The position numbers were made by a program, and so were the translations under genes. Below the pieces are notes generated by a model that was given only the letters and a program-made list of their open reading frames with translations, was not told where the DNA came from and ran no database searches. From Candidatus Colwellbacteria bacterium (lineage in GTDB: Bacteria > Patescibacteriota > Minisyncoccia > UBA6257 > Colwellbacteraceae), in the NCBI GenBank assembly GCA_016176505.1, contig JACOXB010000010.1, positions 27,021-91,020 on the forward strand: DNA of 64,000 nucleotides, read 5' to 3'. Of this stretch, positions 21,314-23,200 are shown in pieces. The stretch's first letter is position 1, and each line of letters opens with the position of its first letter.

Positions 21314-21428
21314 TCGCGACGAGAACGAGCTAAGAGAAGTGAGAAACCCATGGAGCGGAAGCGAGCCCAGGTGGCAGAGAAGTCCAAGAGGAACGAGCGA
21401 CACCCCAACGAACCGGTCACGTAGTGCC

Positions 21429-21466
21429 CGAAGAGCGCATAAGCCATATGCGCTCTTCTTCGTTTT
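21429..21466 (+). terminator. Intrinsic terminator (12-bp perfect stem GAAGAGCGCATA/TATGCGCTCTTC + TTCGTTTTT)
   Basis: Read directly. It lies between the first 3 array units and the main array block. A TTGACA hexamer follows at 21516. Confidence 0.6.
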
Positions 21467-22690
21467 TGACGCCATTATTTAAATGGGTTATATAGTTTCT
21501 AGTAAGAGTAGTTGTTTTGACAATTCGGACCGGAGAGGAGCGAGCCGATCTCCCTAAGGTAACCAACGTGCGGAAGCGAGTCGGAACTGAAGATAAACCC
21601 AAGGTGAAAGAGCGAGCCGGCCAGAGTGAGAAACCCATTCCCGGCGAGCGAGTCAGGTATCTGTAGAATCCCGTTTGACCAGAGCGAGTCGCCGTGTGGG
21701 AGACTCCCAACAGCCACGAGCGAGCCAAGGGGAAGAAGAATCCCGCCGTAGCTGAGCGAGCCCGACAAGAGAAGAAGCCCATTGCTCTCGAGCGAGCTAA
21801 CCGCCAGGAAAAAACCAATTCGGATGAGCGAGCCTGACAAGGAAAGAAACCCTGGTTGGGAGAGCGAGCCATTCGCGAGTAGATACCTGGCGTACGCGAG
21901 CGAGCCAAGGTAGCGTAGAAACCCAAAGTCGTGGAGCGAGCTAAGAACAAGAAGAACCCCGAGCTACGCGAGCGAGCCGTCCTCTGAAAGAAACCCAAGT
22001 TCGGCAAGCGAGTCATCCTGCCAGAGAAACCCTGTCGGGGTAAGCGAGCCATGAGTCTTGAGTAGACCATGAGGCTTGAGCGAGCCAGCCTATGGGAGAA
22101 CCCCAAGCATCCCGAGCGAGTCAACGTCCAGTAGAAACCCATCCGTCATGAGCGAGCCGTCCTTTCAGAGAAACCCAAGTGCTCACAGCGAGCCGTGAGA
22201 GATGAGACGCCCGTACTACGCAAGCGAGTCAGTCACCGGAAGGAATCCACGATTCTGAAGCGAGCCAGGCAGCAGAAGAAACCCAGAGGATATTAGCGAG
22301 CCACCCTGCGATAGAACCCCACATGGGAGAAGCGAGCCAGCAGAGTCGAGGAACCCGCCATCGATAAGCGAGTCGAACCGCGGAAGAAACCCAAGCTGCT
22401 AGAGCGAGCCATGATACTGAAGTAATCCACAGTATATGAGCGAGCCCTCAAGCATAAGAAATCCGTCACCTGGAAGCGAGCCGTGATAGCAGAGATCCCC
22501 GACTCCACTGAGCGAGCCATGGGCGCTGAGTAACCCAAAAGCGAAAAGCGAGTCATTGTTAGTCAGAAACCCACGATGCCGAAGCGAGCCAGACTGGGAG
22601 AGAAATCCAAACCGAATGAGCGAGCCAGACTTCGCAAGATACCCAAGACGATTGAGCGCTCCACCTCAACCGGTCAACCAGTACCCCAAA

Positions 22691-22724
22691 GTGCCATCAT
22701 TACGATGGCACTTCCCATTTTTGG
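22691..22724 (+). terminator. Hairpin GTGCCATC-attac-GATGGCAC followed by TTCCCATTTTTGG inside the 135-bp array interruption
   Basis: Perfect 8-bp stem plus a T-run on the plus strand only. Confidence 0.45.
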
Positions 22725-23166
22725 AAAACAAGGTAAAAATCCTTGTAGTCCTTCGATAATCAAAGACCGGAAAGGAGCGAGCCGACCAGCCGCAGAAATC
22801 CATCGTTGACAAGCGAGCCAACCTCCCAGAGAAACCCAGAGTACACGAGCGAGCCATCCTCTGAGAGGAACCTAAGTTCGGCAAGCGAGTCACTATTCAC
22901 GAGAACCCTAAGGCCCCTAAGCGAGTCACGGCGTCAAAGAAACCCGAAGTTCTAGAACGAGTCATACATGGCGAGTATCCCAACCAGCCGAAGCGAGTCA
23001 TCGTTCGCTAGGAACCCACGGTACTCGAGCGAGTCGACATGTGGGAGACCCCCAATAGTGGCAAGCGAGCCGTCATGCCAAAGAAATCCAATGCCGGGAA
23101 GCGAGCCATATCAGAGGAGAAGCCCACGCTACTGAAGCGCCCCTCACCGGTCACCCGCACCTTGCA

Positions 23167-23200
23167 AAGCCCACCATCCAGGTGGGCTTCCGCATTTTTA
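23167..23200 (+). terminator. Intrinsic terminator closing the array (AAGCCCACC-atcca-GGTGGGCTT + CCGCATTTTTA)
   Basis: Perfect 9-bp stem plus a T-run on the plus strand. The minus-strand reading has no T-run. Confidence 0.6.

Follow-up and report, generated by a model that had tools for sequence, protein, structure and literature searches.

A 36-bp Periodic Array in Candidatus Colwellbacteria Read as a Dual-Repeat TIGR-TasA System

Introduction

What is the role of a strictly periodic DNA array that lies directly behind a gene annotated only as hypothetical? The question is raised by a locus of Candidatus Colwellbacteria bacterium (assembly GCA_016176505.1), in a stretch of 64,000 nt from contig JACOXB010000010.1 (positions 27,021 to 91,020, forward strand). 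This whole stretch is called the window, and all coordinates are positions in it. An earlier note on the locus regarded the array as a dedicated RNA- or DNA-array system that could not be matched to any described class. Such a class does exist, as the array and its adjoining gene match the TIGR-Tas systems (Faure et al., Science 2025, PMC12045711). TIGR arrays consist of two alternating repeats of 8–12 nt, the edge and the loop, with 9-nt spacers A and B between them (Faure et al., Science 2025, PMC12045711). The locus is almost certainly a dual-repeat TIGR-TasA system and belongs to a family first reported in 2025, for which about 20,000 tas loci are now known, along with 6,685 annotated arrays. 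As a whole it is best explained, with high probability, as a nuclease-free, RNA-guided DNA-binding system. Every in-silico feature of the published TIGR array definition, save a clear 5′ rule, is found here; the locus is genuine and apparently intact, and nothing places it outside the known kind.

Anatomy of the Arrays

The system lies entirely on the plus strand, where it spans approximately 20278–23199 in three cassettes. The hexamer AGCGAG recurs at intervals of exactly 36 bp from 21539 to 22619, i.e., in 31 units (array A), and again from 22776 to 23100 in 10 units (array B), the anchor at 22956 being mutated to AACGAG. Two further units (array 0, at 21328–21399) follow the stop codon of a 308-aa open reading frame (ORF). 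This gives 43 complete units in three blocks (2 + 31 + 10), all within 21324–23139. Elsewhere in the window AGCGAG occurs 27 times on the plus strand and is nowhere periodic. The strict periodicity without insertions or deletions that was described in the earlier note thus holds over the 31 + 10 units, while its count of about 48 units has to be lowered to 43. It had also placed three degenerate units right behind the stop codon, where two complete units are counted here.

Per-position conservation over the 41 units of arrays A and B defines the repeat unit. Positions 3–11 read A-G-C-G-A-G-(C/T)-C-(A/G) and positions 21–29 read A-G-A-A-A-C-C-C-A, while positions 12–20 and 30–2 carry 0–0.3 bits each, except for the final base of each spacer, which is a purine in 81–95% of units. 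A unit therefore consists of the edge repeat AGCGAG(C/T)CA, a spacer A of 9 nt, the loop repeat AGAAACCCA and a spacer B of 9 nt, and the variable segments are 9 + 9 nt rather than 6–7 and about 8 nt as first thought. Both the edge AGCGAGCCA and the loop start with AG (box D) and end with CCA (box C). In these units A3 and A21 are invariant, G4 is present in 40/41, G22 in 39/41 and C27 in 41/41, and the box D/box C pattern is equally present in 204 units from related loci. Edge position 9, which lies opposite G4 (40/41 units), is only ever C or T, so that a G-C or G-U pair with G4 is kept; this variation fits the box C/D pair of the TasR structure. A few units have degenerate loop repeats (AAAAAACCA, AGATACCTG, and ATAAACCCA).

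The ends of the cassettes are also alike. Each of the three blocks closes with a half edge repeat AGCG, and the ends align three ways as AGCG, a few bases, the trailer motif ACCGGTCA, a hairpin and a T-run. All three plus-strand terminators proposed in the earlier note were recovered, each with its stem and T-run (Table 1), and the supposed insert of 135 bp between arrays A and B is an inter-array gap of 117 bp. The regions upstream of tasA (the 308-aa ORF, see below), array A and array B, the last with a 10-nt deletion, align mutually and have a common leader pattern of TTGAC(A/G)-17 nt-TA(A/T)A(A/T)A, then GTAGTTGTTT(T)GACAA, and then GACCGG. A TTGACA previously singled out as a promoter box starts at 21517 and is part of the conserved GTAGTTGTTTTGACAA motif, which is present upstream of tasA too; it was rejected as a −35 box because a −10 box is absent at the proper spacing.

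GACCGG is found in all three leaders and its complement inside the trailer motif ACCGGTCA of all three arrays. The two elements bracket each array, and the ends of a precursor could therefore pair over 6 bp. Among the related loci that were inspected, none showed the motif where its arrays end.

Contigs of two Logan assemblies, from SRR12113420 and SRR12113424, are 100% identical to the window over 20220–23280 and 20220–21649, respectively. An assembly artefact had been considered from the outset; as the two assemblies are independent and the spacers of every unit are unique, collapse or chimerism of the assembly is unlikely.

The Adjoining Protein

The 308-aa ORF encodes MBI2011015.1, listed by NCBI as "hypothetical protein HYS89_02175" from a Candidatus Colwellbacteria metagenome-assembled genome (MAG). 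Pfam and PADLOC gave zero matches for this protein. The Tas family is in neither library, and identification therefore needed sequence and fold searches of the PDB. With phmmer the protein matched TaTasR (9MTY) at E = 1.3e-13 and SpTasH at E = 7.9e-9, and a profile of 44 sequences matched TaTasR at 4e-25 and TasH at 1.5e-16. In Foldseek the top 11 PDB matches were all TasR or TasH (probability 1.0, TM 0.5–0.7), followed by the IS110-family bridge-RNA recombinases IS621 and ISCro4. The AlphaFold2 model (mean pLDDT, i.e., predicted local distance difference test, of 91) has about 13 disordered residues, helices at 14–41 and 47–71, and then a Nop domain; in this model the helical hairpin corresponds to the coiled-coil dimerisation element. 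Judged from sequence and model, the protein is a TasA, the Tas type without a nuclease, and has a Nop domain and a Zn-ribbon insertion.

The assignment to TasA follows from what precedes the coiled-coil. The profile alignment begins at TaTasR residue 129 and the BLASTP alignment at ParTasR residue 136, both past the RuvC domains, and since only the 13 or so disordered residues lie before the coiled-coil there is no nuclease domain. A Tas protein with neither HNH nor RuvC is classed as TasA. Y289 and H296 are invariant in the 44 homologs and align without gaps with Y289/H296 of SpTasH, which together cleave pre-tigRNA without metal ions; such a catalytic pair is characteristic of dual-repeat Tas proteins (PMC13421893; bioRxiv 10.64898/2026.09.09.750476). 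The gene is intact, and its product retains every residue that is invariant in the homologs. The Zn ribbon, CxxC...CxC, is formed by C176, C179, C194, and C196 and lies in an insertion that is missing from about half of the 44 homologs. The earlier note had described a helix-hairpin-helix/Zn-ribbon protein; the Zn ribbon stands, as an insertion, and the remainder is better described as TasA with a Nop domain.

Conservation in Related Loci

Relatives were examined in 24 loci from GTDB (L001–L024) and eight viral loci from IMG/VR (L091–L098). The 24 loci that a GTDB-wide scan found to encode relatives (34–59% identity) come from Patescibacteria, Dehalococcoidales, Aenigmatarchaeota, and other MAGs, and in 21 of them an adjacent 36-bp array with AGCGAGCCA / AGAAA(A/C)CCA repeats is present. 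Most of these arrays start at the tas stop codon and finish in AGCG plus a terminator. All eight viral contigs with relatives (40–44% identity) carry such arrays, several of them with about 60% GC and about 20 units. Arrays of the same family do therefore occur in related genomes, a point that the earlier note had wished to see checked. The 9-nt blocks are conserved while the proteins drift to 35–55% identity, which is what an RNA-protein recognition element predicts. The terminators and the box motifs, together with this linkage, support the earlier view that the array is read from the plus strand and belongs functionally with the protein encoded upstream. When metagenomes were scanned for strain variants with the leader plus the first edge (GACCGGRRAGGAGCGAGCC), 62 matches were obtained, none with an array and all chance.

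Spacers are essentially never shared between loci, and near-duplicates are confined within loci. In the present locus unit 15 (21975–22010, array A) and unit 36 (22852–22887, array B) have the same spacer pair with 1/18 mismatch. Near-duplicate units within a locus were also found in the relatives L013, L016, and L017, which suggests that arrays grow partly by unit duplication.

The composition of the spacers is biased. T occupies the fourth spacer position in 21/43 spacers A and 20/43 spacers B compared to a background of 20% (p = 2e-5 and 8e-5), and C the sixth in 18/43 (A) and 20/43 (B). The bias is symmetric between A and B, was not found among the 204 units pooled from relatives, and cannot be put down to duplicated units. 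It is tempting to speculate, albeit as a long shot, that it could be a footprint of guide acquisition or selection, e.g., a source-site motif or a preference of the Zn-ribbon TasA. If it does reflect acquisition, the way in which TIGR arrays expand would be visible in the three cassettes of promoter, array, and terminator, and a chromosomal locus with 43 guides in a tiny genome of the candidate phyla radiation (CPR) would lend itself well to a search for natural targets. In the relatives (both locus sets) spacer positions 1–8 are 58% purine, pooled over 4,928 nt, compared to 52% in the spacers of the window. This excess may represent a family-level preference for purine-rich guides.

Proposed Mechanism

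The anatomy, the family membership of protein and array, the catalytic residues and the gene-array linkage are observed at the locus itself, and by analogy with characterised relatives they point to transcription, processing, DNA binding, and repression as follows. The scheme is very probably correct as stated. The plus strand would be transcribed as three units, i.e., tasA with the 2-unit array, the 31-unit array, and the 10-unit array, each closed by an intrinsic terminator. A TasA dimer, with its coiled-coil and Nop domain, would recognise the box D (AG) and box C (CCA) elements that bound the edge and the loop, and Tyr289/His296 in the extended C-terminal loop of its Nop domain would cut, metal-free, within each edge repeat (AGCG^AGCCA). 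The cut position is set by two mature tigRNAs that were made synthetically, TaTasR tigRNA1, AGCCA-UGCAAGCCC-UGAAACCCA-UUGCCUUAG-UGCG, and SpTasH tigRNA5, AGCCA...AGCG (Faure Table S3, PMC12045711). Cleavage would yield 43 different tigRNAs of 36 nt, predicted to read AG(C/U)CA, the 9 nt of spacer A, AGAAACCCA, the 9 nt of spacer B, and AGCG (e.g., 21615–21650). TasA, TasR, and TasH proteins bind 36-nt RNAs cut within the edge repeat, as shown for FpTasA, TaTasR, and SpTasH (PMC12045711). On its own the array RNA shows no significant folding (z = −0.39), which is consistent with a structure templated by protein, and pre-tigRNAs have been reported to lack extended duplexes (Faure et al., PMC12045711).

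The two 9-nt spacers would then base-pair with an uninterrupted DNA site of 18 bp, each with a different strand; tandem-spacer targeting of this kind is established in characterised TIGR systems (PMC12045711). The TasA complex would bind, unwind, and bend the DNA and so block transcription (or replication) of whatever carries the site. Binding rather than cutting is expected because TasA has no HNH or RuvC domain, and transcriptional repression has been shown for the stem-loop TasA MbTasA and for catalytically dead TasR. The likeliest targets would be rival mobile elements, and host genes are possible.

Target Searches and Points Against

A predicted target was taken as spacer A plus the reverse complement of spacer B on one strand, 18 bp in all, a geometry derived from the oligos of Table S3; for unit 5 it reads GCCAGAGTG+CGCCGGGAA. 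Compared with the window the 43 targets gave one 2-mismatch site, in dnaE at 54645–54662 (unit 41, ACATGTGGGTGCCACTAT), and one 3-mismatch site. About 0.1 two-mismatch self-matches are expected by chance in the window, where a wrong-geometry control gave three 3-mismatch sites and none better. Six predicted targets were compared with IMG/VR, and five of them had no exact match. The remaining one belongs to unit 17 (22047–22082), whose spacers TGAGTCTTG and TGAGGCTTG are nearly identical, so that the predicted target is near-palindromic. Its exact 18-mer occurs in one phage sequence on two IMG/VR contigs (L027 and L028), at the 5′ end of a PhoH-like gene. The matched phage has 38% GC and no second spacer match, and the match is probably chance. 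When all 43 targets were compared with loci L001–L024 and L091–L098, only 3-mismatch matches were found besides the unit-17 phage match, and no contig had matches to two different guides.

The outcome of these searches is one of several points that weigh against the TIGR-TasA assignment or the mechanism proposed for it. Matches are at chance level, and no natural target was found in the window, for the six targets in IMG/VR, or in the loci of relatives; natural TIGR targets are generally hard to identify (Faure et al., PMC12045711). The promoter-like boxes of the leaders are weak, and as a strict sigma-70 scan calls none of them the leader modules are putative promoters only. The leader module of array B is moreover degenerate, and arrays A and B open with a full edge repeat after GACCGGRRAGG and not with a 5′-truncated edge. 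On the protein side, repression by TasA is known only from the stem-loop MbTasA and not from a dual-repeat TasA, and FpTasA, the sole characterised dual-repeat TasA, aligns in BLASTP over only 39 C-terminal residues.

Alternative Explanations

The alternative that survives best accepts a TIGR-TasA system and differs in what it does. It is conceivable, though not probable, that TasA has an output other than simple repression and recruits a host nuclease, an integrase or recombinase (the DNA being bent by about 180 degrees), or a partition protein. Such recruitment possibilities were raised for TasA by Faure et al., who noted occasional ParB-like partners, and the uncharacterised Zn-ribbon insertion, present in only about half of the homologs, speaks for it as well. 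There is however no partner gene at the locus, where the flanks encode SecD and DnaJ, and reversible transcriptional repression is the only output of TasA that has been shown experimentally.

It is less probable still that the locus is a decaying, non-functional remnant of a TIGR system, left behind in the chromosome once it had been transferred horizontally. In favour of this reading, no mobile-element genes surround the 3.2-kb island, degeneration is seen in array 0, in the array B leader, and in a few loop repeats, and the target searches described above found none. Against it, tasA is intact and has kept the processing pair, the AGCGAG core is intact in 40/41 units of arrays A and B, the 36-bp register is free of indels, and all three terminators are intact.

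A third possibility, that the array is a minus-strand gene for a protein of 12-residue repeats, GF..[LM]ARS..., is effectively refuted. A minus-strand ORF of 241 aa does exist at 21417–22142, gene calling on the Logan contigs reported it, and stop codons are comparatively scarce in the minus frames. The earlier note had two of them almost stop-free, but all six frames are interrupted; the minus frames have 4–11 stops each in array A, and the best has four in array A and two in array B. The minus ORF is a single open run within a stretch of skewed composition and has no Pfam match. In the frame given in the earlier note, codon position 3 of the repeat blocks carries 1.56 bits and position 1 1.71 bits, compared to 0.17, 0.32, and 0.07 bits at the three codon positions of the spacers, which are near-random; third codon positions are thus as conserved as first, and this entropy analysis upholds the earlier view that constraint acts at the nucleotide level and the array is non-coding. 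The same nucleotide repeats are furthermore retained across relatives whose Tas proteins are only 35–55% identical, and the terminators, the orientation, and the box motifs fit the plus strand. Targeted hypervariability, which had been offered as another cause of the variable segments, found no support, since neither a reverse transcriptase nor a template repeat is present in the flanks. Finally, a CRISPR array of unusual form whose cas genes lie far away would account for regular repeats, unique spacers, a leader, and terminators, but is refuted by the unit anatomy, which has two alternating 9-nt repeats and 9-nt spacers instead of one 25–36-nt repeat with spacers of similar size. The adjoining protein, a Nop-domain Tas protein without a PADLOC match, speaks against it too, in agreement with the original judgement that this was no canonical CRISPR.

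Comparison With Known Systems

As a TIGR-TasA system the locus has its closest structures and repeats in TaTasR (9MTY), ParTasR, and SpTasH (9W03/9W04). The repeats are near-identical, the edge and loop being AGCGAGCCA / AGAAACCCA here, AAGCGAGCCA / AAGACAACCA in SpTIGR, and UGCGAGCCA / UGAAACCCA in TaTIGR and ParTIGR, and SpTIGR has an AG box D like both repeats here. The 36-nt mature register AGCCA...AGCG (predicted here) and the Y/H pair are common to all, and the Nop domain is 26% identical to that of ParTasR. TasR and TasH differ in having an N-terminal RuvC or HNH domain, which the present protein lacks and for which reason no DNA cleavage is expected of it; the present protein also has an extra insertion of about 40–60 residues that contains the Zn ribbon. 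With FpTIGR, the dual-repeat TIGR-TasA system of Flavonifractor plautii (PMC12045711), the locus shares a solo protein of coiled-coil and Nop domain without nuclease, a gene-adjacent array that closes in a half edge repeat and a terminator, and the Y/H processing loop. The two proteins are related only distantly, the FpTIGR repeats are different (AGTGTACC / AGTAACCC), and the Zn-ribbon insertion of the present protein is a further difference. Three separately terminated arrays with 43 units also set the locus apart from published arrays, which most often have 5–15 units (PMC12045711); in the TIGRFinder set the average is about 16 per dual-repeat array (65,635 tigRNAs in 4,126 arrays).

More distant likenesses concern the RNA-binding fold. 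The IS110 recombinases IS621 and ISCro4 have a Nop-like RNA-binding fold (Foldseek E = 1e-3 to 1e-2), and the two specificity loops of the IS110 bridge RNA, flanked by box C/D-like motifs, resemble the guides here. Unlike in IS110, there is no DEDD/RuvC or Tnp domain and there are no transposon ends, and many short guides take the place of one bridge RNA. Archaeal and eukaryotic box C/D small (nucleolar) ribonucleoproteins, with Nop5 or Nop56/58, have in common a coiled-coil Nop dimer and a pseudo-symmetric RNA with two guides beside box C/D. Here, by contrast, the target would be DNA rather than RNA and the guides are of 9 nt in head-to-tail arrays; no K-turn/L7Ae or fibrillarin partner was seen at the locus. 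With CRISPR the locus shares the repeat-spacer logic, a leader and terminator, and presumably the processing into unit-length guides, while the proteins are unrelated, the predicted guides are split into 9 + 9 nt that would read both DNA strands, no protospacer-adjacent motif should be needed, and there is no known adaptation machinery.

Origin of the Island

The system makes up most of a GC-rich island of about 3.2 kb (approximately 20250–23200) that lies directly after tRNA-Lys, between this gene and dnaJ. tasA has 63% GC overall and 85% GC at third codon positions (GC3), compared to a GC3 of about 45% in the flanking housekeeping genes secD and dnaJ and the nearby dnaE; the spacers have 55% GC. 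The GC3 contrast, the position of the island, and the GC-rich viral relatives indicate that the island was acquired recently by horizontal transfer, probably from a mobile element. No integrase and no att duplication were detectable, and a direct repeat of the tRNA-Lys 3′ end was not found downstream of the island.

The locus leaves knowledge of the TIGR family unchanged. It adds a well-delimited example, an apparently horizontally acquired TIGR-TasA island in a CPR bacterium with 43 guides, three cassettes, and a Zn-ribbon TasA, and it illustrates that a reader of sequence alone can recognise a TIGR array without prior knowledge of the family. Questions on which it might be put to use are the natural targets of TIGR systems, the growth of their arrays, and what a TasA without nuclease does in the reduced genomes of symbionts.

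Table 1. Features of the TIGR-TasA locus and its left boundary (window coordinates).
Feature	Coordinates	Strand	Remarks
tRNA-Lys(UUU)	20175..20249	+	ARAGORN and Rfam; left boundary of GC-rich island, possible insertion site, outside system
tasA leader/promoter-like module	20278..20337	+	Read from sequence; aligns with regions upstream of arrays A and B
tasA module parts	TTGACA 20278–20283, 17 nt, TAAAAA 20301–20306, GTAGTTGTTTGACAA 20313–20327, GACCGG 20332–20337	+	
tasA, 308 aa	20387..21313	+	Coiled-coil (about 14–71), Nop domain, Zn-ribbon insertion, Y289/H296, without nuclease domain
TIGR array 0	21324..21399	+	Degenerate first edge AACGAG, 2 units (21328–21363, 21364–21399), final half edge AGCG
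Trailer and terminator 1	21412..21468	+	ACCGGTCA 21412–21419; stem 21430–21458, T-run
Array A leader/promoter-like module	21466..21533	+	Putative promoter role
Array A module parts	TTGACG 21466–21471, 17 nt, TATATA 21489–21494, GTAGTTGTTTTGACAA 21508–21523, GACCGG 21528–21533	+	
TIGR array A, 31 units of 36 bp	21539..22658	+	Final half edge AGCG at 22655–22658
Trailer and terminator 2	22669..22723	+	ACCGGTCA 22669–22676; stem 22689–22713, T-run
Degenerate leader copy upstream of array B	22724..22775	+	10-nt deletion in −35/−10 region; GACCGG 22765–22770
TIGR array B, 10 units of 36 bp	22776..23139	+	Final half edge AGCG at 23136–23139
Trailer and terminator 3	23146..23199	+	ACCGGTCA 23146–23153; stem 23167–23189, T-run; right end of system

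Surroundings of the Locus

Several palindromes, perfect or nearly so, are found just downstream of the last terminator, at 23199–23235 and 23292–23329, with the sequences TACGTACCGAGGTACGTA and ACTTATTTACGTAAATAAGT and an inverted repeat with arms of 19 nt. They may mark the island boundary. Further downstream a 66-nt GC-rich element at 23401–23466 has a copy of 92% identity at 46225–46289, both being intergenic. The element had no match in Rfam and no unusual fold, and contains a GAGCGAGCC-like string. The earlier note had considered this region (23401–23489) leader-like, but as it lies past the last terminator and the second copy has no array beside it, the element is unrelated to the arrays and no part of the system.

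Rfam searches of the locus and of the whole window gave only tRNAs, one of which, at 63704–63775 (48.5 bits), was not listed by ARAGORN. A second GC-rich single-gene island is located on the minus strand at 51051–51884 (60–65% GC compared to about 45% in the flanks), with a 277-aa ORF that has no Pfam match, between an RNase III-like gene (50301–50990) and dnaE. dnaE itself appears as two overlapping plus-strand ORFs, 52245–52799 and 52741–55341, which could be due to a frameshift, a sequencing error, or a split gene.

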